64,000 nucleotides of DNA from NCBI RefSeq assembly GCF_013315695.1, contig NZ_CP054353.1. One strand, 5' to 3'. This document shows, in pieces, positions 27,277-56,748 of this stretch (the stretch's first letter is position 1; the number at the start of each line of letters is the position of its first letter). The DNA is from Escherichia coli. GTDB lineage: Bacteria; Pseudomonadota; Gammaproteobacteria; Enterobacterales; Enterobacteriaceae. Position numbers and translations under genes: made by a program. Under the pieces are notes generated by a model. That model was not told the DNA's origin. It ran no database searches and worked only from the letters and a program-made list of their open reading frames with translations.

Positions 27277-28023
27277 ATGAAATCATTAAGTAAGTCGTCA
27301 CAAATACCGCTCTATCAACAAGTGGTGGAGTGGATAAGAGAAAGTATTTATACCGGGGATCTGGTGGAAGACGATCGCATTCCTTCGGAATACCAGATTA
27401 TGGATATGCTGGAAGTGAGTCGGGGAACCGTTAAAAAAGCGGTCGCCCAACTGGTAAAAGAAGGCGTGTTGATTCAGGTCCAGGGGAAGGGAACTTTTGT
27501 CAAAAAAGAGAACGTGGCATATCCGTTAGGTGAAGGATTATTGTCATTCGCGGAATCGCTGGAAAGCCAGAAAATACATTTTACCACTGAAGTTATTACG
27601 TCACGGATTGAACCGGCTAATCGTTATGTGGCAGAGAAATTAAGAATAACGCCCGGTCAGGATATTCTTTACCTTGAGCGTTTACGTTCAATTGGTGATG
27701 AAAAAGCGATGCTGATAGAGAACCGTATCAATATTGAGCTATGCCCCGGCATCGTGGAAATCGATTTTAATCAACATAATTTATTTCCAACAATAGAAAG
27801 TTTGTCGCAAAGAAAAATTCGTTACTCGGAAAGTCGCTATGCCGCGCGATTAATTGGTAATGAACGCGGTCATTTTTTAGATATCAGTGAAGATGCACCC
27901 GTTTTGCATCTGGAGCAGTTAGTCTTTTTCTCCCGAGAGTTACCCGTTGAGTTTGGCAACGTCTGGTTAAAAGGAAATAAATATTATCTGGGCACCGTGC
28001 TGCAACGGCGGGAAGTGAGTTAA
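27277..28023 (+). CDS. GntR/HutC-family transcriptional regulator (winged HTH + UTRA effector domain)
   Basis: ORF 27268..28023 (GTG); ATG at 27277 with AGGTG SD. HTH region IPSEYQIMDMLEVSRGTVKKAVAQLVKEGVL. Confidence 0.8.
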   Translation: MKSLSKSSQIPLYQQVVEWIRESIYTGDLVEDDRIPSEYQIMDMLEVSRGTVKKAVAQLVKEGVLIQVQGKGTFVKKENVAYPLGEGLLSFAESLESQKIHFTTEVITSRIEPANRYVAEKLRITPGQDILYLERLRSIGDEKAMLIENRINIELCPGIVEIDFNQHNLFPTIESLSQRKIRYSESRYAARLIGNERGHFLDISEDAPVLHLEQLVFFSRELPVEFGNVWLKGNKYYLGTVLQRREVS

Positions 28024-28047
28024 ATACACTTTTTTATGAGGAATAAA

Positions 28048-28521
28048 ATGCAAGGCATACAGTTTCAGGAAAATTATATTCAACGACTTCCGGCAGGGTT
28101 AAGCGTTGAACAGATCATCCGTCAGTTAGCGCAACCGTTGGTTGCTGCTGAGCTGGTGGTCCCTGATTTTGCCAATCACGTACTGAAACGTGAGGCGACG
28201 TACCCAACGGGGCTGCCTACCGAACCACCGTGCGTCGCCATTCCGCACACGGACCATAAACATGTCCGGCACAATGCAATTGCCGTCGGTATTTTGCCAG
28301 AGCCGGTAGAGTTTGCCGATATGGGCGGCGACCCTGATCCCGTACCTGTCAGGGTGATTTTTTTGCTCGCCTTAAGTGAAAGTAATAAACAATTAAATGC
28401 CCTGGGCTGGATTATGGAGATGATTCAGGATACGCCCTTTATGCGCGCCCTGCTTACGATGGAAACAACAGAAATACACACAGTAATCTTAAACAAAATG
28501 AATGAACGAGGTGAAATATGA
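28048..28521 (+). CDS. PTS EIIA component, galactitol (GatA-like) family
   Basis: ORF 28036..28521; ATG 28048 after GAGGA. Phospho-His region CVAIPHTDHKHV resembles GatA AIAIPHCEA. Confidence 0.8.
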   Translation: MQGIQFQENYIQRLPAGLSVEQIIRQLAQPLVAAELVVPDFANHVLKREATYPTGLPTEPPCVAIPHTDHKHVRHNAIAVGILPEPVEFADMGGDPDPVPVRVIFLLALSESNKQLNALGWIMEMIQDTPFMRALLTMETTEIHTVILNKMNERGEI

Positions 28522-28799
28522 GTCAAACCATTTTATTTGTCTGCGCCACAGGTATTGCCACATCCACGGCGGTAACAGAAAAAGTCATGGAGTATTGCAA
28601 AGAGCACGGCCTTAACGTCAATTATTCCCAAACCAACGTTGCCTCTTTACCCGGTAATACCGACGGCGTAGCGCTGGTTGTTTCAACGACTAAAGTGCCT
28701 TATGAACTCGACGTCCCGGTAGTTAACGGCTTGCCGATTATTACCGGTATTGGCGAAGAGAAAGTACTGGCGCAAATTGTTTCGATTCTTAAAAAGTAA
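28518..28799 (+). CDS. PTS EIIB component, galactitol (GatB-like) family
   Basis: 93 aa, ILFVCATGIATST (phospho-Cys loop); 4-bp overlap with EIIA gene. Confidence 0.8.
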   Translation: MSQTILFVCATGIATSTAVTEKVMEYCKEHGLNVNYSQTNVASLPGNTDGVALVVSTTKVPYELDVPVVNGLPIITGIGEEKVLAQIVSILKK

Positions 28800-28872
28800 T
28801 TAATAATTAATTCCAACCCACTCCATCAGGCGCTAACGCGAGGTGCGCTCTCGCCTGAAAAAGAGGTTTATT

Positions 28873-30231
28873 ATGAACGATATCGCGCATACCCTCTATA
28901 ATATTGTGCAATATATATTGGGATTTGGCCCCACGGTAATGTTGCCGTTGGTGTTATTTATTCTTGCTCTCTGTTTTAAAGTAAAACCCGCTAAAGCCTT
29001 ACGCTCGTCATTAACAGTCGGCATTGGTTTTGTCGGTATTTATGCCATTTTCGATATTCTTACCAGCAATGTCGGGCCAGCGGCCCAGGCGATGGTTGAA
29101 CGCACCGGAATTAATTTACCGGTGGTGGATTTAGGCTGGCCGCCGCTTTCCGCTATTACATGGGGTTCGCCAATTGCCCCGTTTGTTATTCCCCTGACCA
29201 TTCTGATTAATGTCGCAATGCTGGCGTTAAATAAAACCCGCACCGTTGATGTAGATATGTGGAACTACTGGCATTTTGCCCTTGCCGGTACGCTGGTTTA
29301 TTACAGCACCGGCAGCCTATTCTTTGGTTTGCTGGCGGCCGCGATTGCCGCAGTGGTGGTGCTAAAACTCGCCGACTGGTCTGCGCCACTGGTACAAAAA
29401 TACTTTGGCCTGGAAGGGATCTCATTGCCGACGCTCTCTTCGGTGGTGTTCTTCCCGGTCGGTCTGCTGGTCGACAAAATCATCGACCATATCCCTGGCC
29501 TCAATCGTATTCATATCGACCCGGAAACCGTACAGAAAAAGTTTGGCATCTTCGGCGAACCGATGATGGTTGGCACTATTCTGGGCATTCTGCTCGGCGT
29601 AATTGCCGGATACGATTTCAAAAAAGTCTTGCTGCTTGGCATCAGCATTGGCGGTGTGATGTTCATCCTGCCACGCATGGTTCGCATCCTGATGGAAGGT
29701 TTATTACCGCTGTCTGAAGCCATTAAAAAGTATCTCAATGCCAAATACCCTGACCGTGACGATCTCTATATAGGACTGGATATCGCCGTTGCCGTAGGTA
29801 ACCCGGCGATTATCTCCACCGCCCTGCTGCTGACGCCAATCTCGGTCTTTATCGCGTTTGTCCTCCCAGGTAATGAAGTCCTGCCGCTTGGCGACCTTGC
29901 CAACCTGGCGGTAATGGCGTCGATGATTGCTTTAGCCAGCCGTGGCAATATTTTCCGCACCGTTCTGGCGGCGATCCCGGTGATTATTGCCGACCTGTGG
30001 ATTGCCACTAAAATCGCGCCGTTTATTACCGGAATGGCGAAAGACGTTAACTTCAAATTTGCCGAAGGCTCCAGCGGCCAGGTTTCCAGTTTCCTTGATG
30101 GCGGTAACCCGTTCCGCTTCTGGCTGCTGGAAATCTTCAACGGCAATCTCATCGCCATTGGTCTGGTGCCGGTTATCGCCCTGATACTGTATGGCATTTT
30201 CCGAATGACGCGGAGCACGGTTTATGCCTGA
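28873..30231 (+). CDS. PTS EIIC permease, galactitol (GatC-like) family
   Basis: ORF 28843..30231; ATG 28873 after AAGAGG. Polytopic; strong resemblance to GatC (GPTVMLP..., GEPMMVGTILG, FGDLANL). Confidence 0.82.
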   Translation: MNDIAHTLYNIVQYILGFGPTVMLPLVLFILALCFKVKPAKALRSSLTVGIGFVGIYAIFDILTSNVGPAAQAMVERTGINLPVVDLGWPPLSAITWGSPIAPFVIPLTILINVAMLALNKTRTVDVDMWNYWHFALAGTLVYYSTGSLFFGLLAAAIAAVVVLKLADWSAPLVQKYFGLEGISLPTLSSVVFFPVGLLVDKIIDHIPGLNRIHIDPETVQKKFGIFGEPMMVGTILGILLGVIAGYDFKKVLLLGISIGGVMFILPRMVRILMEGLLPLSEAIKKYLNAKYPDRDDLYIGLDIAVAVGNPAIISTALLLTPISVFIAFVLPGNEVLPLGDLANLAVMASMIALASRGNIFRTVLAAIPVIIADLWIATKIAPFITGMAKDVNFKFAEGSSGQVSSFLDGGNPFRFWLLEIFNGNLIAIGLVPVIALILYGIFRMTRSTVYA

Positions 30232-31732
30232 TAACAGCGCAGCTATCGTTATCGATATTGGCACCACCAATTGCAAAGTCACCTGCTTTTCCTGCCTGGA
30301 TGCAACGACGTTGGGCGCGCATAAATTCGTGACGGCAAAACAGATCTCCCCACAGGGCGATGTCGATTTCGATATCGACGTCCTCTGGCAGGAGGTCCGC
30401 CAGGCAATAGCGCAACTGAGCGCCGCTTCGCCGCTGCCGGTCAGGCGGATAAGCATTGCCAGTTTTGGCGAGTCAGGGGTGTTTCTTGACGAGCATGGCG
30501 AGATCCTGACGCCAATGCTGGCATGGTATGACCGCCGCGGTGAAGAGTACCTGGCAACGCTTAGTGAGGCAGACAGTGCGGCGCTTTATGACATCTGCGG
30601 GCTACCGCTGCACAGCAATTACTCTGCCTTCAAAATGCGTTGGTTGCTGGAGCATTATCCACTGCGTAATCGCCGCGGCCTGCGTTGGCTACATGCGCCG
30701 GAAGTACTGCTCTGGCGGCTGACTGGCGAACAGCGTACGGATATCACCTTAGCCAGCCGTACGCTGTGTCTGGACGTGCGTAAAGGCGAATGGTCAGCGA
30801 AAGCGGCGGCGTTGTTACACGTTCCCTGTTCAGCATTTGCGCCATTGGTGCAGCCAGGCGAGCACGCCGGATGGGTCAGCGAGTCGCTCTGCAAAACGCT
30901 TGGGTTCTTGCAACCGGTCAGCGTGACGCTGGCCGGGCATGACCATATGGTGGGTGCGCGGGCGTTGCAGATGACGCCGGGCGATATCCTTAACTCGACG
31001 GGCACCACAGAAGGCATTCTGCAACTGGATACACAACCGACGCTGGATGAACAGGCCAAACGTGACAAGCTGGCAAACGGCTGTTATTCGCTTGCAAACC
31101 AGTTCACCCTGTTTGCGTCGCTGCCGGTGGGCGGTTTCGCTCTGGAGTGGCTGCGCAACACGTTCCGGCTAACCGATGAGGAGATCGCCGCATCACTTAC
31201 TCGCGGACATGCGGATTACCTGGCGGGGAACTGGTCGCTCGATGACATTCCCGTTTTTATTCCGCATCTTCGCGGTTCGGGTTCGCCCTATAAAAATCGC
31301 CATACCCGAGGATTATTTTATGGGCTTGGCGATACGTTAAATATCGATATGTTAATTGCCAGCGTCTCACTGGGATTAACCATGGAATTTGCCAACTGCT
31401 TCGCCTGTTTTAATGTGCCCGGCACCAGCGCGTTAAAAGTGATAGGTCCGGCAACCCATAATCCCCTTTGGCTGCAATTAAAGGCGGATATTTTACAGCG
31501 TCCGGTTGAAGCAATTGCATTTAACGAGGCGGTTTCTGTCGGAGCATTATTAACCGCCGCACCGGATATTCCACCGCCGCAAGTCACCATAGCCCAACGT
31601 TTGTTACCGAATCGGGCGAGATACCATCAATTACAGCGTTATCAGCACAAATGGAAAAGCTGGTATCAGTTGAAATTACAGCAAGAAGGCGTGATGCCAT
31701 TACATCATCGGGAGGAGCACTATGTTGAGTAA
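30224..31732 (+). CDS. FGGY-family carbohydrate kinase
   Basis: 502 aa; N-terminal AAIVIDIGTTNCKV ATPase motif; 8-bp overlap with EIIC gene. Confidence 0.75.
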   Translation: MPDNSAAIVIDIGTTNCKVTCFSCLDATTLGAHKFVTAKQISPQGDVDFDIDVLWQEVRQAIAQLSAASPLPVRRISIASFGESGVFLDEHGEILTPMLAWYDRRGEEYLATLSEADSAALYDICGLPLHSNYSAFKMRWLLEHYPLRNRRGLRWLHAPEVLLWRLTGEQRTDITLASRTLCLDVRKGEWSAKAAALLHVPCSAFAPLVQPGEHAGWVSESLCKTLGFLQPVSVTLAGHDHMVGARALQMTPGDILNSTGTTEGILQLDTQPTLDEQAKRDKLANGCYSLANQFTLFASLPVGGFALEWLRNTFRLTDEEIAASLTRGHADYLAGNWSLDDIPVFIPHLRGSGSPYKNRHTRGLFYGLGDTLNIDMLIASVSLGLTMEFANCFACFNVPGTSALKVIGPATHNPLWLQLKADILQRPVEAIAFNEAVSVGALLTAAPDIPPPQVTIAQRLLPNRARYHQLQRYQHKWKSWYQLKLQQEGVMPLHHREEHYVE

Positions 31733-31991
31733 AACCGTGGAGGTCAGAAACAGTACTGGCCTGCATGCACGTCCGGCGGCCTGTCTGGCGAAAGCCGCCA
31801 AAAAATATAGCTGTAAAGTGACGCTGCATTATGAAGGTAATGATATTAATGCCACCAGCATGATGAATATTATGCGCGCCGGAATAAAAGGCGGAAAAAC
31901 GGTGGAAATACGCTGCGAAGGTGATGATGAAAACGAGGCAATACAAACTCTCACTACCTTATTTCGCGACCGCTTCGGTGAAGCTGAATAA
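31722..31991 (+). CDS. HPr-like phosphocarrier protein (island-encoded paralogue)
   Basis: 89 aa; active-site GLHARPAA (His-15 equivalent); overlaps kinase gene. Confidence 0.8.
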   Translation: MLSKTVEVRNSTGLHARPAACLAKAAKKYSCKVTLHYEGNDINATSMMNIMRAGIKGGKTVEIRCEGDDENEAIQTLTTLFRDRFGEAE

Positions 31992-32022
31992 TTAACTGAT
32001 ATTAAAAGATGAGGTTTTCAAT

Positions 32023-32883
32023 ATGCCATTAGTTAATGGACGGATACTGCTCGACCGCATTCAGGAAAAACGGGTATTAGCGGGCGCATTTAATACCACC
32101 AATCTGGAGACAACGATTTCAATTTTAAACGCCATTGAGCGTTCAGGATTACCCAACTTCATTCAGATTGCGCCCACCAATGCACAACTGTCGGGATACG
32201 ATTACATTTATGAAATCGTGAAACGTCACGCTGATAAAATGGATGTTCCGGTCAGTCTTCATCTTGATCACGGGAAAACTCAGGAGGATGTTAAACAGGC
32301 GGTGCGCGCGGGCTTTACCTCGGTCATGATTGACGGTGCCGCATTCTCTTTTGAAGAGAATATCGCTTTCACCCAGGAAGCTGTCGATTTCTGTAAATCC
32401 TATGGCGTACCGGTTGAAGCGGAGCTGGGGGCGATTCTCGGCAAAGAAGACGATCACGTCAGCGAAGCCGATTGCAAAACGGAACCGGAAAAGGTGAAGA
32501 CCTTTGTCGAACGCACCGGTTGCGACATGCTGGCAGTTTCTATTGGTAACGTTCATGGCCTGGACGATATACCGCGGATCGATATCCCCCTGCTGAAGCG
32601 CATTGCCGAAGTCAGCCCGGTGCCGCTGGTTATTCACGGCGGCTCCGGTATCGCCCCGGAGATATTACGCAGTTTCGTTAATTATCGCGTCGCTAAAGTG
32701 AATATCGCCAGCGATCTGCGCAAAGCGTTTATCACCGCAGTCGGCAAAGCCTATGTGAATAATCACAACGAGGCGAATCTGGCACGAGTGATGGCATCAG
32801 CAAAAAACGCCGTCGAGGAAGATGTGTATAGCAAAATCCTGATGATGAATGAGGGGCATCGGTTGATTAGAAAGGCATCTTAA
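32023..32883 (+). CDS. Class II ketose-bisphosphate aldolase (GatY/KbaY/FbaA family)
   Basis: 286 aa; LHLDHG, VEAELG, HGGSG motifs of class II FBA family. Confidence 0.82.
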   Translation: MPLVNGRILLDRIQEKRVLAGAFNTTNLETTISILNAIERSGLPNFIQIAPTNAQLSGYDYIYEIVKRHADKMDVPVSLHLDHGKTQEDVKQAVRAGFTSVMIDGAAFSFEENIAFTQEAVDFCKSYGVPVEAELGAILGKEDDHVSEADCKTEPEKVKTFVERTGCDMLAVSIGNVHGLDDIPRIDIPLLKRIAEVSPVPLVIHGGSGIAPEILRSFVNYRVAKVNIASDLRKAFITAVGKAYVNNHNEANLARVMASAKNAVEEDVYSKILMMNEGHRLIRKAS

Positions 32884-32932: not shown

Positions 32933-33292
32933 TTATAAATGATTCAAACGCTCATTTAGCGTTTCAATAATATAAGTATTTACAGAGACTTGTTGCTGCG
33001 CAGCCGCATTATTAAGGCGTTCACTCAGCGATTCTGGATAGCGTAATGTAAAGGTCTTAATCTTTTCTGTACGCGCATACGGCTCAATACCCGCAGCTTT
33101 ACAATCCTCAAGATACTCTCGCAGGGAAAGCTCCCCTTCTTTTTGCAGCCCCTGAATGCTGTCAGAGACAAAATCACAATAACCTGACAAGCCCAGGAAT
33201 TTGCCACGAAATGCATTCAGTTCTGGCACGTAAGTGATAACAGCAGGTTGCCCGGCAATCTCCATAGAGTTTGGCGTCTTCAGTTTGATCAT
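32933..33292 (-). CDS. HicB-family antitoxin-like protein (C-terminal ribbon-helix-helix)
   Basis: 119 aa; C-terminal SERLNNAAAQQQVSVNTYIIETLNERL looks like an RHH DNA-binding motif; 4-bp overlap with upstream small gene. Confidence 0.6.
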   Translation of the reverse strand: MIKLKTPNSMEIAGQPAVITYVPELNAFRGKFLGLSGYCDFVSDSIQGLQKEGELSLREYLEDCKAAGIEPYARTEKIKTFTLRYPESLSERLNNAAAQQQVSVNTYIIETLNERLNHL

Positions 33293-33564
33293 GGTTTTAC
33301 CCCTATACTTAGTAACCAGTCACGCACGCTTTCTACAGCGCCTTTATCGGTATCTGGCGACGGATGAGGCCGATGGAAACACGCAACGCTCATATTTAGT
33401 ATGAACTTACAACGCGAACCTCTTCCTTCCTTAATTTCTCCGCCTAATGCTTTAACCAGTGACTCTATATCAGACCACTTAATCCCTTGAGGAACAGGAG
33501 ATTTAAATATTTGATCCAATGTATTTTTTTGTTTCTTCCGTAAAGCCTGTACCAGGGTTCTCAT
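33289..33564 (-). CDS. HicA-family toxin-like protein (putative mRNA interferase)
   Basis: 91 aa; GSRCKFIL...HRPHP...DTDKGAVESVRDWL resembles the HicA pattern; upstream partner of the HicB-like gene. Confidence 0.55.
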   Translation of the reverse strand: MRTLVQALRKKQKNTLDQIFKSPVPQGIKWSDIESLVKALGGEIKEGRGSRCKFILNMSVACFHRPHPSPDTDKGAVESVRDWLLSIGVKP

Positions 33565-50486: not shown

Positions 50487-51296
50487 ATGGATCAAGCAAA
50501 CAAATGGTTGGATCTCTCAGGAAAAGTGGTGATCGTGACCGGGGGCAGTATGGGGTTAGGCGAAAAAATGGTCGAAAACCTCTCTGCAAATGGCGCAAAT
50601 GTCGTTTATGCCGATCTGGCTCCCAACCAGAGCTTTAATGAGATGGAAGGCATTACCTTTATAAAATGTGATGTCACAAAAAAGACCCAGGTTGAAGCTC
50701 TCACACAGACAGTCGTAGAAAAGTTTGGTCATATTGATGGCCTGGTTAATAACGCCGGGGTCAGCCGCCCGCGACTGTTGGTCGATGTATTTAAACAAAA
50801 ACCAGAGTACGAACTTAGTGAAGACGACTTTGATTTTATGGTGGGAGTGAATCAAAAAGCCGTTTACCTGGTATCGCAGGCCGTAGCTCGTCAGATGGTC
50901 GAACAGCAGTCAGGCGTCATTATTAATATGACATCTGAAGCAGGTGTTCAGGGATCGCGTGGACAAAGCTGTTATTCAGCGACAAAAGCCGCCGTCAATG
51001 CATTCACCTTTTCATGGGCAAAAGAACTGGGTCCGTTTAACGTTCGCGTTGTCAGCGTTGAACCAGCTATAAACGTTCCTACTCCTATGAACAGCGAAGC
51101 GAATTTCCGTGCTCTTGCTTATACACGCGGCACAGATCCCTCACATGTTCATAAAGATTACAAAGGAATTATCCCGCTTGGTCGCCCTGGCAAACTCGAA
51201 GAAATCGCTGACTTAATTTCTTTCCTGGTTTCGGATCGTTCTTCCTACATTACCGGTTCCGTGATCAATATCACCGGCGGTAAATCACACCATTAA
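50487..51296 (+). CDS. Short-chain dehydrogenase/reductase (SDR) family oxidoreductase
   Basis: ORF 50481..51296; ATG 50487 after GGAGA. Gly-rich VTGGSMGLG motif, YSATK catalytic motif. Confidence 0.8.
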   Translation: MDQANKWLDLSGKVVIVTGGSMGLGEKMVENLSANGANVVYADLAPNQSFNEMEGITFIKCDVTKKTQVEALTQTVVEKFGHIDGLVNNAGVSRPRLLVDVFKQKPEYELSEDDFDFMVGVNQKAVYLVSQAVARQMVEQQSGVIINMTSEAGVQGSRGQSCYSATKAAVNAFTFSWAKELGPFNVRVVSVEPAINVPTPMNSEANFRALAYTRGTDPSHVHKDYKGIIPLGRPGKLEEIADLISFLVSDRSSYITGSVINITGGKSHH

Positions 51297-51323: not shown

Positions 51324-52790
51324 ATGGGGAACAGTAAAATTGCCAATAGCCCTGCGTTAGCGAAAATAAGAAAGTTTGGTGGAGTAATGAGCGGCATGGT
51401 AATGCCGAATCTGGGTGCCTTTGTAGGATGGGGGTTAATGGCCGCTATCTTCATTCCTAACGGATGGTTTCCTAATGAAAAATTAGGCCAGATGGTCGGC
51501 CCCATCCTGAATTATCTTTTCCCATTACTTATTGGGTATACCGCAGGTTATAACATTCACGGTCAGCGCGGAGGGGTCATCGCTGCTTTCGCAACGATGG
51601 GCGTCATCGTAGGTTCTGAAATAACCATGATAAGCGGCGCGATGGTCATGGGGCCGTTATCGTCCTGGCTATTGAAAAAGTTTGACCAGAAAGTACAGCA
51701 CCGAATTAAACCTGGCTTCGAGATGTTTGTAAATAATTTCAGTCTGGGAATAATAGGACTGCTTTGTGCAATCTTTGCTTATATGACAGTGGGGCCGGTT
51801 ATCCGCGTCCTGATCGTTATTATCACTTCAGGCGTGAACTGGTGTACCAGTCATAATTTACTGCCGTTACTATCAGTATTTATGGCTCCTGCACAGGTGC
51901 TTTTCCTGAATAACGTGGTGAACCACGGTATTCTCGCGCCAATTGGTTTTGCCCAAGTTCCTGAATTGGGTAAATCAATTATGTTCCTTGTGGATACCAA
52001 TAACGGTCCCTTGCTCGGAACATTGATGGCCATCGCCCTGTTTGGTCGTAGTCGTGCGAAGAAAACAGCACCAATGGCGATGTTTATCGCCGGTATTGCA
52101 GGGATTGGTGAAGTCTACTTCCCGTTTGTACTGGCTAATCCGTTGTTAGTCTTCGCAACAATGGGCGGCCTTGCTGTCTCTTTGTTCTTACAGGTGATCA
52201 TGGGCGGCGGTTTGATCGGTGTGGCTTCGCCGGGGAGTTTGATCGCCATCGCCATGATGACGCCTAAAAGTGCGATTATTGCCAACCTGGTATCTATCAG
52301 CGCCGGTTTTGTCGTCTCCTGTACACTTGGCTGGTTAATTCTCAAAATTAGCCCCGGTTCAGAAGATGATGACGAAGAAAATCCGGTCATCGTCGGTGGT
52401 CGTCAGGTGAGATCTGTTAGCGACTTTGTCCCTGGCATCTCAAACGTGACGGCGGCAACCAGTAATAAAACCGTTCAACGCATTTTGGTTGCCTGTGATT
52501 CAGGTATGGGGTCCAGCGCGATGGGGGCATCTGTTTTACGAAAACGGTTAAAAGCTGAAGGGCTCGATTACATAACTGTTGTCAACGATTCCGCAAACAG
52601 AGTAGGTAGAGATTACGATATTGTCATTACGCTTTCCGGACTACTCGAACGCGCAAGACTAAGTTGCGAGAATGAAAATACTGTTTTTATGACGGTGAAA
52701 AACTTTATTAAGTTAAGTGACTATGATGAGGCAGTGTCCTATATAAAAACGCAAGAAAATGTTACTCAACGTGAGGAGGCGACGGCATGA
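51324..52790 (+). CDS. PTS EIICB component, mannitol (MtlA/CmtA-like) family
   Basis: ORF 51312..52790; ATG 51324 after GGAG. N-terminus GMVMPNLGAFVGWGLMAAIFIP resembles MtlA; C-terminal EIIB ILVACDSGMGSSAMG (phospho-Cys). Confidence 0.82.
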   Translation: MGNSKIANSPALAKIRKFGGVMSGMVMPNLGAFVGWGLMAAIFIPNGWFPNEKLGQMVGPILNYLFPLLIGYTAGYNIHGQRGGVIAAFATMGVIVGSEITMISGAMVMGPLSSWLLKKFDQKVQHRIKPGFEMFVNNFSLGIIGLLCAIFAYMTVGPVIRVLIVIITSGVNWCTSHNLLPLLSVFMAPAQVLFLNNVVNHGILAPIGFAQVPELGKSIMFLVDTNNGPLLGTLMAIALFGRSRAKKTAPMAMFIAGIAGIGEVYFPFVLANPLLVFATMGGLAVSLFLQVIMGGGLIGVASPGSLIAIAMMTPKSAIIANLVSISAGFVVSCTLGWLILKISPGSEDDDEENPVIVGGRQVRSVSDFVPGISNVTAATSNKTVQRILVACDSGMGSSAMGASVLRKRLKAEGLDYITVVNDSANRVGRDYDIVITLSGLLERARLSCENENTVFMTVKNFIKLSDYDEAVSYIKTQENVTQREEATA

Positions 52791-53215
52791 CATCCATTTT
52801 CTCACCGAATAACATTATCCTGAACGCAAAAGCAGGAGATAAATACGAGGCTATTACTCTTACTGGTAATATTCTTAAACAAAATGGTTATGTCACTGAA
52901 GAATACATCCAGAGAATGAAACTAAGGGAGGAGATCGTTTCAACCTATCTTGGTAATGGTCTGGCAATTCCCCATGGCACTGATGGTTCAGATTGCGAGA
53001 TTGTTAAATCTGGAATCTCTCTGGTACAGTTTCCCGATGGTATTGATTTTGGCGATGGGAATACTGCCTATATAACCATTGGCATTGCCGGAAAAGAAGG
53101 CGAACACTTGGATCTGTTAAATAAGATCGCCTTAATTTGTATTGACGAAGATAATGTTAAAGCATTGCGTAACGCTAAAACCATTGAACAGGTTTTACAA
53201 GTACTCAACATCTAA
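52787..53215 (+). CDS. PTS EIIA component, mannitol (CmtB/MtlA-IIA-like) family
   Basis: 142 aa; LAIPHGTDGSD phospho-His region; 4-bp overlap with EIICB. Confidence 0.8.
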   Translation: MTSIFSPNNIILNAKAGDKYEAITLTGNILKQNGYVTEEYIQRMKLREEIVSTYLGNGLAIPHGTDGSDCEIVKSGISLVQFPDGIDFGDGNTAYITIGIAGKEGEHLDLLNKIALICIDEDNVKALRNAKTIEQVLQVLNI

Positions 53216-53255: not shown

Positions 53256-53954
53256 ATGAAAGCTGCCAGACAAGACATTATCCTTCAAATACTTGAGAAA
53301 GAGAAAAAGATTGTTGCCAGTAAATTAAGTGAGCGTCTTAAGGTTTCTGAAGACACCATAAGACGCGACTTAAATGAACTGGCTAACCAGGGGTTAATTC
53401 GTCGGGTTCATAGCGGCGCGATTCGTGTGGGGCCTGCCATTACCGACTTTAACGTCAGGCAAGATCTGAATATTAATGAGAAGGTTAAGCTTGCAAAGAA
53501 AGCAGTACATTTAATTAAAGAAAATAGCGTCATTTTAATTGATGGAGGAACAACTAATTACGAATTAGTAAAGCTGATCCCTAAAGATTTAAAGTGTACG
53601 GTTGTCTCCAATAACATACCTATTCTGCATCTTTTAAGTGATTATCAGAATGTAGAGGTCATTGGTCTTGGTGGTCGCCTGTATAAAAACTCTTTAGTGT
53701 TGATTGGCGCAGAGACTATTCGCGAACTTGAGGCAATTCGCCCTGATATTTATTTCATGGGTGTTGCGCATGTTGATAGCGAAGTGGGTGTTACCATTCC
53801 TGGTCTAGATGAGTGCTATACCAAACAAAAAATGGCTCAAGTCTCAAATGAAGTTGCCATCCTCGTAACAGAGGAAAAACTTGAGACGCGTTCTAATTTC
53901 GTCGTGTCCTCACTCAAGGATATTAACTATATATTTACGAGTAAGGACATCTAA
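53256..53954 (+). CDS. DeoR-family transcriptional regulator
   Basis: 232 aa; N-terminal HTH LSERLKVSEDTIRRDLNELANQGLIRRVHSGAI plus DeoR-type sugar-phosphate sensing domain. Confidence 0.8.
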   Translation: MKAARQDIILQILEKEKKIVASKLSERLKVSEDTIRRDLNELANQGLIRRVHSGAIRVGPAITDFNVRQDLNINEKVKLAKKAVHLIKENSVILIDGGTTNYELVKLIPKDLKCTVVSNNIPILHLLSDYQNVEVIGLGGRLYKNSLVLIGAETIRELEAIRPDIYFMGVAHVDSEVGVTIPGLDECYTKQKMAQVSNEVAILVTEEKLETRSNFVVSSLKDINYIFTSKDI

Positions 53955-53971
53955 AAACATGAGGTATTTTA

Positions 53972-55144
53972 ATGAAACGCGTATTAATTATCGGCGCTGG
54001 CCGCCTTGGTAAAGGTTTTGTTGGAGAAACTTTTGATAACGCAGGCTGGAATATTACTTTCCTTGATAAAGATCCACGAGTTATTGATGAATTAAATCGT
54101 CATAATAAATATACCGTTCAGGTATTCCGCACCGATGATATCATCATGCATGAGGTAACCAATTTTCGTGCCTTTGCTACAGATGATAACTACTCCGTAA
54201 TGAATGACTTCCTGGAATCTTCCGTTATTATGTGTCCGCTATATCCGGAAGATTTTGAAGAGTCTGCGCGTTATCTCGGAAAATGCTTTGAACAGCAGTT
54301 TAAAGTTGACCCTGATAAAAAAATGACGCTCATTTGCCTGACCAATAAAAATCATATTATTAAAGACATCGAAGCCTGGTATCGCAATGCCATTCCTTCA
54401 GCGCAGGCGCGAGACTGGTTTGATTCCCATGTCGCCATTCGTGACTCGATCGTCAGACGTTCAACCGATGCCGAAACGCATTACGCAACGCAGATCGATA
54501 GCACCGCTGTCGCCTCCTTATTGATTCAAACCCCGCTGTACAATGACATTAGCGACGTGGAATGGCTGGAGCCACGCGATCATCTGGAAATGCTTAAAGA
54601 CATTAAAGTCTTTACCATCAATGGCCCACACGCCACCACTGCTTATTACGGACACCTGAAAGGTTATAACACCATTCCGGATGCCTCCGCAGACCCGGAA
54701 GTAGCCGCATTAGCCAATGCGGTACACGACGTCACCATCAAGGCGGTGATGACAGAATATCCGCAAATCACCCGTGAAGCCCTTACGGACCTGGAATATT
54801 TGCCGAAAGCCAAGAACGAGCTCCCCGACTCAATCCATCGCGTCGCCTATGATCCCGTGCGCAAATTAGCCTTTAAAGACCGCTTAATGGGCGTGGTGCA
54901 GCTTTGCCTGAAATACAATCTTGATTATTCACCGCTAACCAAAGCCATCGCCTGTGGCCTCGCTTACTATGCCGAAGACGACCGCGCTTCTGTAAATCTG
55001 CAACAGCAGATGCAGAAAAAGGGCTTGCTGACGACAACCGCGCAAATTATCGGTTTGCCGAAAGATCATCCCGTCACGCTAAATGTTGCACAACAATATT
55101 TAGCGTTGGATGCTGAAAATTTAATTCCAGCCATACCGTGTTAA
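53972..55144 (+). CDS. Mannitol dehydrogenase-family polyol-phosphate dehydrogenase (MtlD-like)
   Basis: 390 aa; N-terminal Rossmann VLIIGAGRLGKGFVGETF resembles MtlD. Confidence 0.7.
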   Translation: MKRVLIIGAGRLGKGFVGETFDNAGWNITFLDKDPRVIDELNRHNKYTVQVFRTDDIIMHEVTNFRAFATDDNYSVMNDFLESSVIMCPLYPEDFEESARYLGKCFEQQFKVDPDKKMTLICLTNKNHIIKDIEAWYRNAIPSAQARDWFDSHVAIRDSIVRRSTDAETHYATQIDSTAVASLLIQTPLYNDISDVEWLEPRDHLEMLKDIKVFTINGPHATTAYYGHLKGYNTIPDASADPEVAALANAVHDVTIKAVMTEYPQITREALTDLEYLPKAKNELPDSIHRVAYDPVRKLAFKDRLMGVVQLCLKYNLDYSPLTKAIACGLAYYAEDDRASVNLQQQMQKKGLLTTTAQIIGLPKDHPVTLNVAQQYLALDAENLIPAIPC

Positions 55145-55146
55145 TT

Positions 55147-55434
55147 ATGATGTCTGAATCAACATGCTGTGCGAATTTTATTATTAAAAATGAACATGGT
55201 ATTCATGCCCGACCTGGTGCGTACATTGTGAATCTTTTAAAACCGTTTAACTGTGCGGTGAAAATTGCCAACCTGTCACGCAATGATCATTACGTTAATG
55301 CAAAAAGTCTTATGGCATTAATGTCGCTGGGAATAAAAAACGGGCATGAAGTCAGTGTTATTTTTGATGGTAAAGACGCACAAAGCGCATTACAAAAGCT
55401 GAGCGCTGAAATTGAAAACGGCTTAGGTGAATAG
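55147..55434 (+). CDS. HPr-like phosphocarrier protein (second island-encoded paralogue)
   Basis: ORF from GTG 55138; ATG at 55147/55150. GIHARPGA active-site His, NAKSLMALMSLG Ser-46-like region. Confidence 0.78.
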   Translation: MMSESTCCANFIIKNEHGIHARPGAYIVNLLKPFNCAVKIANLSRNDHYVNAKSLMALMSLGIKNGHEVSVIFDGKDAQSALQKLSAEIENGLGE

Positions 55435-55492: not shown

Positions 55493-56584
55493 ATGATTAC
55501 CACAGCAATATTCCCTGGAAGATATATTCAGGGGGCGGGAGCTATTGAGCAATGTTTAGGTGAGGAGTTATCCCGTTTTGGCAACAAGGCAATGATTGTG
55601 GAAGATCCGGTAGTTAATCAAACCATCGGCGGCAAAATTGCCGACGCGCTAAACGAAGATTTTACTTACGAGCTGGAAATTTTTAATCGCGAATGCTGCG
55701 ATGAAGAAATTGAACGAATCTGCAAATGCACGCAGGCCTGTGGCGCGAAGATGATTGTGGGTATCGGCGGCGGCAAAACGCTGGACACCGCCAAGGCCGT
55801 CGGTGCTACTCTTAATTTGCCGATCATCGTCATCCCTACGCTGGCGTCTACCGATGCGCCATGCAGCTCGCTGGTTGTCATTTACACGGCGCAGGGTCAG
55901 TTCAAACGTTATATGATGATCCCCCATAACCCGTCCCTTGTTTTCATCGACTCGCAGGTGGTAGCCAATGCGCCGGTGCGTTTCCTGCTCTCGGGTATCG
56001 GTGATGCCCTGGCAACCTGGTTTGAAGCCGAAGATTGCCGGATCAAAGGCGCAGGAAATATGACCGGGCGTCCGGGGCCGATGTCTGCCTATGCGCTGGC
56101 GAAATTGTGCTTCGACACCATCCTGGAGTACGGCGAACAGGCGGTAACGGCTTGCCGTATGCATCAGGTTACCCCCGCCCTTGAACATGTTATCGAAGCC
56201 AATACGCTACTTTCCGGGCTGGGCTTTGAGAGCGGCGGGCTTGCTGCCGCGCACGCCATTCATAACGGGCTGACGGTTGTGCCTGAAACGAAAGCGTTCT
56301 GGCATGGCGAAAAAGTGGCCTTTGGCACCCTGGCCATGCTGCTAATGACCGACAGAAAACCGGAGCTGATAGCCCAGGTTTATACGTTTTACCGAAGCGT
56401 GGGGCTGCCAGTGACGCTTGCCGAAATTGGCATCACCGATAGTTCACCAGAGCATCTGATGAAAATTGCCCAGGCCGCCTGCCAGCCGGGCGAAACGATG
56501 CATAACGAACCTTTTGAGATCACGCCAGAAAGCGTCGTCGCGGCTTTAATTGCTGCCGACGCATACGGCAAAAAATACCATTAA
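55493..56584 (+). CDS. Iron-containing (group III) alcohol dehydrogenase, glycerol dehydrogenase GldA-like
   Basis: ORF from TTG 55484; ATG 55493. GIGGGKTLDTAKA, ASTDAPCSSL, GFESGGLAAAHAIHNG motifs match GldA family. Confidence 0.82.
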   Translation: MITTAIFPGRYIQGAGAIEQCLGEELSRFGNKAMIVEDPVVNQTIGGKIADALNEDFTYELEIFNRECCDEEIERICKCTQACGAKMIVGIGGGKTLDTAKAVGATLNLPIIVIPTLASTDAPCSSLVVIYTAQGQFKRYMMIPHNPSLVFIDSQVVANAPVRFLLSGIGDALATWFEAEDCRIKGAGNMTGRPGPMSAYALAKLCFDTILEYGEQAVTACRMHQVTPALEHVIEANTLLSGLGFESGGLAAAHAIHNGLTVVPETKAFWHGEKVAFGTLAMLLMTDRKPELIAQVYTFYRSVGLPVTLAEIGITDSSPEHLMKIAQAACQPGETMHNEPFEITPESVVAALIAADAYGKKYH

Positions 56585-56620
56585 TTATCTCAGATTGTTG
56601 ACAAAGTGCGCTTTGTTCAT

Positions 56621-56719
56621 GCCGGATGCGGCGTGAACGCCTTATCCGGCCTACAAAATCATGCAAATTCAATATATTGCACAAACCACGTAGGCCTGAT
56701 AAGGCGTAGCGCATCAGGC
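56621..56719. repeat. REP/BIME element between convergent island genes
   Basis: gccggatgcggcgtgaacgccttatccggcctaca and gtaggcctgataaggcgtagcgcatcaggc REP units. Confidence 0.8.
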
Positions 56720-56748
56720 AGTTTTTTCGTTTGTCATCAGTCTCTTTT

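Follow-up and report, generated by a model that had tools for sequence, protein, structure and literature searches.

A 64,000-nucleotide stretch of Escherichia coli DNA (NCBI RefSeq assembly GCF_013315695.1, contig NZ_CP054353.1; hereafter the window) carries two genes for free-standing HPr-family proteins, designated HPr1 and HPr2, each of which is probably a functional, operon-private phosphocarrier of the HPr type, acting as donor in a relay from Enzyme I (EI) through HPr to the cognate IIA protein. Both genes are already annotated as HPr (in either case the RefSeq product name is ‘HPr family phosphocarrier protein’) and fit a familiar pattern; the observation thus holds but is rather unremarkable, and no new kind of system is involved. 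As had been proposed in a first-pass annotation of the window, each HPr gene was found to be located inside an accessory PTS operon of its own, referred to here as island 1 and island 2 (Table 1).

Table 1. Genes of the two accessory PTS islands, with positions in the window and the profile or annotation on which each assignment is based
Gene product	Coordinates	Strand	Evidence
Island 1
GntR/UTRA-family regulator	27277..28023	+	RefSeq; NCBIfam GntR-family matches; 88-94% identical in orthologous operons
PTS EIIA (PTS_EIIA_2, galactitol/fructose type)	28048..28521	+	RefSeq; GatA-like 56.6 bits, below cut-off
PTS EIIB (galactitol type)	28518..28799	+	RefSeq, NCBIfam; overlaps IIA by 4 nt
PTS EIIC, Gat family	28873..30231	+	PF03611 308 bits; TIGR00827 476 bits (below cut-off 542)
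FGGY-family carbohydrate kinase	30224..31732	+	PF00370, PF02782; no NCBIfam equivalog reached
HPr1, free-standing HPr-family phosphocarrier	31722..31991	+	89 aa; WP_000949581.1
Class II ketose-bisphosphate aldolase	32023..32883	+	PF01116 272.6 bits; NF005943 556 bits (above cut-off 364)
Island 2
Short-chain dehydrogenase, sorbitol-6-phosphate dehydrogenase-like	50487..51296	+	NF004817 360 bits (cut-off 304); RefSeq
Mannitol-type PTS EIICB	51324..52790	+	NF011663 506 bits, positions 7-477, below full-IICBA cut-off; RefSeq
PTS EIIA, closest to FruB N-terminal IIA domain	52787..53215	+	PF00359 118.5 bits; NF008319 132 bits, positions 5-139
DeoR-family regulator	53256..53954	+	Profile searches; RefSeq
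Mannitol-dehydrogenase-family oxidoreductase	53972..55144	+	PF01232, PF08125; no equivalog reached
HPr2, free-standing FPr-type HPr phosphocarrier	55147..55434	+	95 aa; WP_001330103.1
Glycerol dehydrogenase (GldA-like)	55493..56584	+	NF006941 504 bits (above cut-off 336)
HAD-family sugar/hexitol phosphatase-like protein	56749..57399	-	NF008087 (HxpB) 188.8 bits, just under cut-off 191
6-phospho-3-hexuloisomerase (HxlB)	57480..58037	-	TIGR03127 172 bits (above cut-off 160)
Ribulose-phosphate / allulose-6-phosphate 3-epimerase family protein	58034..58744	-	TIGR01163 183 bits (below 212.6); NF007266 146.7 bits

Two HPr-family proteins of different lineages

The two ORFs had been described in the first-pass annotation as encoding HPr-like phosphocarriers with the active-site histidine, and both belong to the genuine HPr family as judged from matches to PF00381 (HPr1 101.6 bits, E 2.4e-29; HPr2 89.4 bits, E 1.6e-25; cut-off 23) and TIGR01003 (103.5 and 80 bits, respectively; cut-off 47.9), and from the motif, which reads GLHARPAA at residues 13-20 of HPr1 and GIHARPGA in HPr2. 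In an alignment of these proteins with PtsH, NPr, the HPr domains of FruB and DhaM, and B. subtilis HPr, the columns of Gly13, His15, Arg17, Pro18 and Ser46 are invariant; the comparison with PtsH, NPr, FruB and DhaM, which had been put forward as a check, left the His15 context intact in HPr1 as well as in HPr2. HPr1 was modelled with AlphaFold2 (pLDDT 93.7) as an open-faced beta-sandwich in which, as in HPr, the elements follow the order beta-alpha-beta-beta-alpha-beta-alpha and His15 is placed at the beginning of helix 1, with strands at residues 2-7, 32-37, 40-43 and 60-66 and helices at residues 16-27, 47-53 and 70-82; the model superposes on solved HPr structures with TM values of 0.87-0.95 (0.94 for T. 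tengcongensis HPr and 0.87 for E. coli HPr). The ATG of HPr1 is preceded, 5 nt upstream, by a strong Shine-Dalgarno sequence (GGGAGGA). For HPr2 the RefSeq start was taken; this ATG follows the stop codon of the mannitol-dehydrogenase-family gene at a distance of 2 nt, and a clear Shine-Dalgarno sequence was not visible ahead of it.

The two genes are separated by 23.2 kb on the + strand, and their products are 35% identical and of different lineages. Their designation as paralogues holds in a distant family sense and not beyond it, while their description as two independent instances is supported by this level of identity, by the difference in lineage and by the independent spread of the two islands among strains. 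The general E. coli HPr, PtsH, resembles the island proteins in length, in the positions of His15, Arg17 and Ser46, and in fold (which was modelled for HPr1), but is 33-35% identical to them, and its gene is adjacent to ptsI-crr rather than being part of a sugar-specific operon. When compared with the PtsH equivalog NF008104, HPr1 scores 52 bits and HPr2 35.6 bits (cut-off 153). NPr (PtsO) and the HPr domain of DhaM are likewise HPr paralogues dedicated to one pathway; the island proteins remain below the cut-off of the NPr equivalog NF008146 (HPr1 48.5 bits, HPr2 36.2 bits; cut-off 119) and of the DhaM equivalog NF008478, which they match in its HPr domain only (47.7 and 46.1 bits; cut-off 520). 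The npr gene follows rapZ in the rpoN-ptsN-rapZ-npr operon, whereas HPr1 and HPr2 are encoded in sugar-catabolic operons. DhaM is a multidomain protein (IIA-Man, HPr and EI N-terminal domain) which feeds a Dak-type kinase, in contrast to the FGGY kinase of the HPr1 operon, and no dhaKL neighbours of either HPr gene were found.

By identity and score, HPr1 matches Firmicute-type HPrs better than PtsH, in that it is 40-44% identical to the former and 34% to the latter (although PtsH itself is 44% identical to the Firmicute HPr that matches HPr1 best), scores 60-77 bits against Firmicute-type HPrs in the PDB as compared to 45 bits against E. coli HPr, and matches the Firmicute-type NCBIfam model with 76.7 bits as compared to 52 bits for the PtsH model. 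Its identity to FruB, which is of a different lineage, is 29-30%. In an exhaustive search of 1.84 billion representatives the HPr1 cluster is isolated, with scores falling from 124 to at most 80 bits, and the nearest full-length relatives outside it are 47-50% identical, those with a name representing mixed taxa (Escherichia marmotae, Ruminococcus and Sutterella). The HPr1 clade is confined to the Enterobacterales, where it always occurs in an operon for a Gat-type PTS, an FGGY kinase and a class II aldolase. No donor lineage stands out in these score and identity comparisons, which counts against HPr1 being a carrier suited to a foreign IIA, and a Firmicute origin of HPr1 is no more than possible.

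HPr2 is 40% identical to the C-terminal domain of FruB (86.7 bits, as compared to 40-56 bits for other HPr paralogues), and its best NCBIfam match is the FruB model NF008319, at profile positions 282-374 (105 bits). The two share the motif NEHG-x-HARPG and a three-residue insertion after strand 2 which is absent from HPr1, and they group in a neighbour-joining tree, a weak grouping given the approximately 90 residues available. By its sequence, HPr2 is a free-standing version of the FruB (FPr) HPr domain.

Operon context and relation to known systems

FPr represents a well-supported group of HPr paralogues (PMC2405797). In common with HPr2, FPr is an HPr paralogue devoted to one sugar system, its coding sequence being part of the operon for the PTS it supplies, and it is positioned between EI and a Fru-type EIIA, HPr2 being paired with a FruB-like EIIA. 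Differences are that FPr is fused to EIIA and a central domain in a 376-aa protein and serves a fructose PTS, whereas HPr2 is free-standing, is encoded two genes from EIIA in E. coli, and belongs to a PTS with a mannitol-type EIICB. The fused architecture of FruB is not present in island 2, where IIA is separate, the central domain is absent and the 105-bit match to NF008319 compares with a cut-off of 302. HPr2 and the FruB-like EIIA would in effect constitute a split FruB (FPr); in Yersinia alsatica, the island-2 version has its IIA gene directly next to its HPr gene. Island 2 is a polyol island, the glycerol dehydrogenase gene of which is missing from its Superficieibacter and Yersinia versions.

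Island 1 is the E. coli counterpart of Salmonella STM3779-STM3785, the genes of which likewise encode a GntR regulator, IIA, IIB and Gat-type IIC proteins, an FGGY kinase, a class II aldolase and an HPr. One account presents the Salmonella island as a full PTS whose specificity is unknown (PMC3604774); a study of 2024 still placed it among systems for ‘unknown sugars’ and classed STM3780-85 as expressed in a caecal community (PMC11000858). The Salmonella kinase is 63% identical to that of island 1, and the STM3779 HPr is 46% identical to HPr1 and has Gly rather than Ser at position 46; the Salmonella island occupies another chromosomal site and has the order kinase-aldolase-HPr. A literature search on the E. 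coli operons (nikR/yhhJ region; CFT073, EDL933 and Sakai loci; HPr paralogue with FGGY) retrieved the Salmonella island only.

A third island of this type was encountered in E. marmotae. Like island 1, this Gat-family island encodes IIA, IIB, a Gat-type IIC, an aldolase and a free-standing HPr (88 aa), the latter being 48% identical to HPr1 and among the closest proteins outside its cluster; it additionally encodes a dehydrogenase. Unlike island 1, it has a PRD/Mga-type regulator, an aldolase of the FucA type (Aldolase_II) and no FGGY kinase, and it is located between serA and zapA.

Distribution and conservation of the HPr genes

HPr1 is present in 1,635 of the 5,426 complete E. coli genomes (30%), including CFT073, EDL933, LF82 and ST131, whereas HPr2 is present in 16. 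Both alleles as found in the window occur together in six, and island 1 was absent from both of the two genomes checked among the ten other HPr2 carriers. The pair had been called uncommon in the first-pass annotation, which is accurate for the carriage of both genes; a single HPr gene in an accessory PTS operon is not unusual, given the presence of HPr1 in 30% of complete genomes and the existence of the E. marmotae island.

The island-1 kinase was used in a peptide-pattern scan of contigs, the patterns of which were very specific and returned ten loci, the Salmonella and Firmicute versions being retrieved by protein search. An HPr gene was found in all of the approximately 15 enterobacterial island-1 operon loci, which represent three gene orders and several chromosomal sites, in a distant operon of Pantoea rwandensis (kinase 37% identical), and in all four island-2 versions. 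Three homologous Firmicute operons (Enterococcus, Pectinatus and Listeria) carry aldolase, IIA, IIB, IIC and kinase genes, and none of the three has an HPr gene within 7 kb; evidently the general HPr suffices for these operons in Firmicute hosts.

The dN/dS ratio is approximately 0.12 for HPr1 relative to Citrobacter amalonaticus (dS near 1) and 0.19 for HPr2 (two E. coli alleles), which at the level of codon comparison indicates that both genes are under purifying selection. Together with their retention in every enterobacterial version examined, this argues that the HPr genes have a function. Both HPrs are nevertheless among the fastest-evolving proteins of their own operons: dN of HPr1 is 0.12-0.47, as compared to 0.02-0.06 for IIB and IIC, and HPr2 and its orthologue in Salmonella share 70% identity, as compared to 91-94% for IICB and the DeoR regulator. 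Three island-1 proteins are fast-evolving, namely the kinase, IIA (dN 0.17-0.27) and HPr. Between E. coli strains HPr2 is 94.4% identical, as compared to 98.4% for the whole island. Special selection on HPr2 as the cause of this divergence was ruled out by a recombination breakpoint at the start of the gene, dS being at most 0.02 in the upstream genes and 0.10-0.17 from HPr2 through the epimerase gene.

The rapid amino acid change relative to neighbouring genes would also be expected if the island HPrs were functional yet not needed, PtsH charging the island EIIAs and the HPr genes persisting by co-inheritance with their operons. This reading, which we regard as possible but unlikely, is furthermore favoured by the Firmicute operons that work without a private HPr and by truncated or frameshifted HPr1 alleles in a minority of E. 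coli assemblies, which suggest that HPr1 may be dispensable in some backgrounds. It is opposed by the full-length coverage of HPr1 in all 1,635 complete E. coli genomes with island 1, by the low dN/dS ratios (0.12-0.19), by the invariance of Gly13, His15, Arg17 and Pro18 throughout the HPr1 clade, and by the retention of HPr in every enterobacterial version examined despite saturated synonymous sites and three rearrangements of gene order.

Relation of HPr1 to the FGGY kinase

The kinase gene of island 1 overlaps the IIC gene by 8 nt and the HPr1 gene by 11 nt, the latter overlap having been taken in the first-pass annotation as a sign of stoichiometric coupling. This interpretation is not supported, because the window contains 17 overlapping same-strand junctions of 1-11 nt each, among them those of IIA with IIB (4 nt), of IIC with the kinase (8 nt) and of rsmD with yhhL, two unrelated genes (11 nt), and because the HPr gene is placed after the aldolase gene, not the kinase gene, in Salmonella (as it is in Winslowiella and Pantoea rwandensis). 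Promoter and terminator scans of both islands yielded counts at the level of shuffled sequence and are consequently silent on separate transcription of the HPr genes.

A mainly signalling role, in which HPr1 and/or HPr2, depending on their own state of phosphorylation, would act by binding or phosphorylating an operon protein such as the FGGY kinase, has precedents in the action of HPr~P on Firmicute glycerol kinase, of EIIA-Glc on E. coli GlpK, and of NPr in the nitrogen PTS. In favour of such a role, regulation by the PTS is established for FGGY kinases such as GlpK, and HPr1 shares its fast evolution with the kinase and IIA of its operon. Furthermore, throughout the Escherichia/Citrobacter/Pantoea subgroup the 3’ end of the kinase gene extends 11-32 nt into the HPr gene, including in operons in which the aldolase gene has been relocated to the front. 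However, such overlaps are commonplace in the window, the HPr gene is found after the aldolase gene in the three taxa named above, the Firmicute versions have the kinase without a private HPr, and the regulators of the two islands are of the GntR/UTRA and DeoR types, which lack a PRD domain for HPr to phosphorylate. The island kinase also has no histidine at the position of His232 in Enterococcus GlpK: the loop ‘syRfygsevpia’ of E. casseliflavus GlpK (chain 3h3n; R at the His232 position) aligns with ‘slcKtlgflqpvs’ of the island kinase. GlpK-type regulation of the island-1 kinase by HPr was rejected on account of this missing activation-loop histidine, and a mainly regulatory role for the island HPrs is considered very improbable.

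Proposed role in phosphoryl transfer

For the favoured reading, that of operon-private phosphocarriers, it is proposed that phosphate would pass from PEP to EI and then to His15 of the island HPr, from which it would be transferred to the EIIA of the same operon, to EIIB and finally to the incoming sugar at EIIC; the EIIA of each island is the presumed acceptor of phosphate from its own HPr. HPr1 would thereby serve the Gat-family PTS, the product of which would undergo a second phosphorylation, by the FGGY kinase, before cleavage by the class II aldolase, while HPr2, with the FruB-like EIIA, would feed the mannitol-type EIICB for polyol catabolism. A private HPr may provide a matched donor for a foreign or specialised EIIA, made only upon induction of the operon, as is FPr for the fructose PTS; FPr is also a precedent for uptake, in this case of fructose, without PtsH. 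The direction of phosphoryl transfer, the proteins that take part in it and whatever independence it has from PtsH are inferred from these comparisons, and the insulated phosphoryl flux or regulatory role that had been suggested for dedicated HPr copies is only plausible.

A stronger version is that Gat-family modules of the island-1 type run in Enterobacterales only by means of a private HPr, PtsH being unable to charge their EIIA, such that the HPr1 clade would be an obligatory adaptor which insulates these modules from the PtsH/EIIA-Glc network and which, in the Escherichia subgroup, may gate the overlapping FGGY kinase. This would explain the presence of HPr in every enterobacterial version examined and its absence from the three Firmicute ones, yet it is judged to be decidedly unlikely.

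Biological implications

Under the favoured reading of operon-private donors, two as yet uncharacterised E. coli operons for accessory sugar uptake would be complete PTS branches downstream of EI. The general HPr, which drives catabolite control, may accordingly be neither required for their activity nor a channel through which that activity is reported. Approximately 30% of strains carry island 1, among them the uropathogen CFT073 and O157:H7, and Salmonella shares it. While the practical value of the finding is modest, the difference between the enterobacterial operons, which always include an HPr gene, and the three Firmicute operons, which have none, leads to a hypothesis on the compatibility of donor and acceptor following horizontal transfer of a PTS.

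Two HPr-family proteins encoded within accessory PTS islands

The window was found to be 100% identical to chromosomes of human-associated E. coli (isolate AF3, NZ_OZ547117.1, and strain MS 21-1), and because of this identity the RefSeq annotation of the AF3 record could be transferred to it (window coordinate = record coordinate - 3,177,732). The two HPr ORFs proposed by the first-pass annotation are indeed present, both on the + strand, and score far above the cut-offs of PF00381 (101.6 bits for HPr1 and 89.4 bits for HPr2; cut-off 23) and TIGR01003 (103.5 and 80 bits, respectively; cut-off 47.9). Their conserved active-site histidine was likewise borne out, the Gly13, His15, Arg17, Pro18 and Ser46 columns being invariant in an alignment of HPr1, HPr2, E. 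coli PtsH (the general HPr), NPr, the HPr domains of FruB and DhaM, and B. subtilis HPr. The AlphaFold2 model of HPr1 (pLDDT 93.7) displays the canonical order of strands and helices, with His15 located where helix 1 starts, and superposes on solved HPr structures with TM 0.87-0.95. Five nucleotides upstream of HPr1 lies a strong ribosome-binding site, GGGAGGA; HPr2 begins 2 nt beyond the stop codon of the gene before it, and an obvious Shine-Dalgarno sequence was not seen upstream of its start.

Features of the window and of compared loci from other genomes (L024, L033 and L034)
Feature	Position	Strand	Description
HPr1	31722..31991	+	89 aa ORF
HPr2	55147..55434	+	95 aa ORF
Island 1	27277-32883		Between nikR and hicBA/yhhJ: GntR regulator, EIIA, EIIB, Gat-family EIIC, FGGY kinase, HPr1, class II ketose-bisphosphate aldolase; GC mosaic (about 0.45 at regulator and IIA, 0.57 in kinase)
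hicA/hicB	32933-33564	-	Type II toxin-antitoxin pair, between island 1 and yhhJ
AT-rich stretch	39000-43000		GC 0.33-0.38; two tandem DUF4049 genes, yhiJ and a paralogue
Island 2 (dtpB-rsmJ)		+	Sorbitol-6-phosphate-dehydrogenase-like SDR, mannitol-type EIICB, FruB-like EIIA, DeoR regulator, mannitol-dehydrogenase-family enzyme, HPr2, glycerol dehydrogenase
Island 2 (dtpB-rsmJ)		opposite	HAD phosphatase, 6-phospho-3-hexuloisomerase, ribulose/allulose-phosphate epimerase
Island 2 recombination breakpoint	55147 onward, to about 58744		At HPr2 start; divides two E. coli allele classes
REP (BIME-like) palindrome pair	56618-56722		Typical of E. coli; between convergent glycerol dehydrogenase and HAD phosphatase genes
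Aryl-polyene-like cluster	L024 38756-44001; L033 1-4609		ApeP/FabG2/ketosynthase/MMPL, upstream of acpT
Third accessory PTS island	L034 3014-9475		Between serA and zapA: IIA, IIB, Gat-type IIC, PRD/Mga-type regulator, FucA-type aldolase, HPr, iron-dependent alcohol dehydrogenase

HPr paralogues embedded in operons are a known kind of protein, exemplified by FPr (the HPr-like C-terminal domain of FruB), NPr and DhaM; the cryptic fructose-like PTS operons of K-12 provide further examples with their fused EI-HPr proteins. HPr1 and HPr2, both already named ‘HPr family phosphocarrier protein’ in RefSeq, are catalogued, uncharacterised members of it. Another Gat-family island that includes an HPr gene is present in Escherichia marmotae: the third accessory PTS island of the table, on an E. 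marmotae-type metagenome scaffold.

Elsewhere, IS elements surround the DUF4049 genes in strain DSM 103246, and the window strain carries yhhT where DSM 103246 and Combat11I9 have the aryl-polyene-like cluster beside acpT.

Relationship to other HPr paralogues

Judged by their sequences, HPr1 and HPr2 are copies neither of each other (35% identity) nor of ptsH: for both, identity to PtsH is 33-35% and to NPr about 31%, and both fall short of the NCBIfam cut-offs for PtsH, NPr, FruB and DhaM. HPr2 clearly belongs to the FPr type, a well-supported HPr paralogue group (PMC2405797): with the HPr domain at the C-terminus of FruB it has 40% identity (86.7 bits), a three-residue insertion and the NEHG-x-HARPG motif in common. 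Its top NCBIfam match corresponds to positions 282-374 of the FruB profile, that of the island 2 EIIA to positions 5-139, and together the two look like FruB divided into its IIA and HPr halves; the counterparts of these two genes lie side by side in Yersinia alsatica. The HPr1 clade is small and isolated: when 1.84 billion representative proteins were searched exhaustively, the cluster of HPr1 itself scored 124 bits and no other full-length protein more than 80 bits. No donor lineage emerged from sequence similarity.

Distribution of the islands

The HPr1 operon occurs in 1,635 of 5,426 complete E. coli genomes, carriers including CFT073, ATCC 25922, LF82, an ST131 strain and O157:H7 EDL933. 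Escherichia whittamii and Citrobacter amalonaticus have it in the identical nikR-yhhJ slot and synonymous sites are saturated between the E. coli and C. amalonaticus versions; island 1 is thus of old standing and variably retained, not recently imported. The hicA/hicB pair is not part of the island, since it directly adjoins nikR in strains without island 1.

Operons orthologous to island 1 show three gene orders. Escherichia and C. amalonaticus have kinase-HPr-aldolase; Pantoea and Enterobacter cancerogenus have the aldolase in front and kinase-HPr at the far end; the order kinase-aldolase-HPr is that of Winslowiella and Salmonella. In Salmonella the operon corresponds to STM3779-STM3785, an island presented in the literature as a complete PTS whose specificity is unknown (PMC3604774); in 2024 it was still placed under ‘unknown sugars’, and expression was scored for it in a caecal community (PMC11000858). 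The HPrs of these operons form one clade with two subgroups, the first with Ser46 kept and the gene beside the kinase, the second with Gly46 and the gene after the aldolase. Pantoea rwandensis has a more distant cluster (kinase 37% identical) in which HPr is likewise present.

Island 2, with a GC content (0.38-0.47) below that of its flanks, is rare (16/5,426 complete genomes). Some Salmonella enterica and Superficieibacter carry it at the same site, and Y. alsatica carries it in rearranged form; all these versions contain an HPr gene. An 8-kb island 2 query matches dozens of places per genome because of the REP palindromes.

Both HPr genes occur as in the window in only six of the complete genomes, namely five essentially identical to it and strain GF131. 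The other island 2 allele class (10 genomes) lacked island 1 in both genomes checked, and the islands are thus independent. Their presence in one strain is a rare coincidence, in agreement with the earlier remark that two independent instances in one window are uncommon.

Sequence conservation and integrity of the HPr genes

The dN/dS ratio is about 0.12 for HPr1 relative to C. amalonaticus and 0.19 for HPr2 between two E. coli alleles, and the catalytic motif does not vary across either clade. Both proteins change faster than most neighbouring gene products; in island 1, dN of EIIA, kinase and HPr exceeds that of EIIB, EIIC, regulator and aldolase five- to tenfold. Between-genera identity along this island is 64-84% for EIIA, FGGY kinase and HPr and 88-96% for EIIB, EIIC and regulator, with synonymous sites saturated throughout; the aldolase is 93% identical in same-order operons and 72% in Pantoea. 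That HPr2 diverges further within E. coli is accounted for by the recombination breakpoint at its start, dS being 0.02 or less upstream of HPr2 and 0.10-0.17 from HPr2 through the epimerase.

HPr1 is truncated or frameshifted in a minority of E. coli assemblies (alleles P0013, P0027, P0038, P0045 and P0055); the N-terminally truncated protein has 57 aa and is without His15, and one truncated form was found on 55 contigs. That the island HPrs are functional but redundant passengers is rather unlikely.

Proposed role of the island HPrs

The 11-nt overlap between the 5’ end of HPr1 and the preceding FGGY kinase gene, from which stoichiometric coupling to the kinase had been suggested, does exist but is uninformative. 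Overlaps of 1-11 nt are found at seventeen same-strand junctions in the window, including IIA/IIB, IIC/kinase and the unrelated rsmD/yhhL (11 nt); the HPr gene lies apart from the kinase in Salmonella-type operons, Firmicute operons keep the kinase without HPr, and the kinase itself has no histidine at the loop position where HPr phosphorylates glycerol kinase in Firmicutes. The sole point in favour of coupling is that Pantoea keeps the kinase-HPr overlap despite its moved aldolase. A mainly regulatory function of the island HPrs is improbable.

HPr1 and HPr2 most likely each act, on a somewhat better than even assessment, as an operon-private phosphocarrier, which would receive phosphate from Enzyme I on His15 and then hand it to its operon's EIIA. 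FPr is a phosphate donor of this kind in the fructose PTS. HPr was present in every enterobacterial operon examined, whereas the three homologous Firmicute operons (Enterococcus alishanensis, Pectinatus frisingensis and Listeria immobilis), consisting of regulator, aldolase, IIA, IIB, IIC and kinase, had none within 7 kb, tblastn at E <= 1 included. This difference suggests a reason for a private HPr, which may act as a donor matched to an EIIA poorly served by the general HPr of Enterobacterales.
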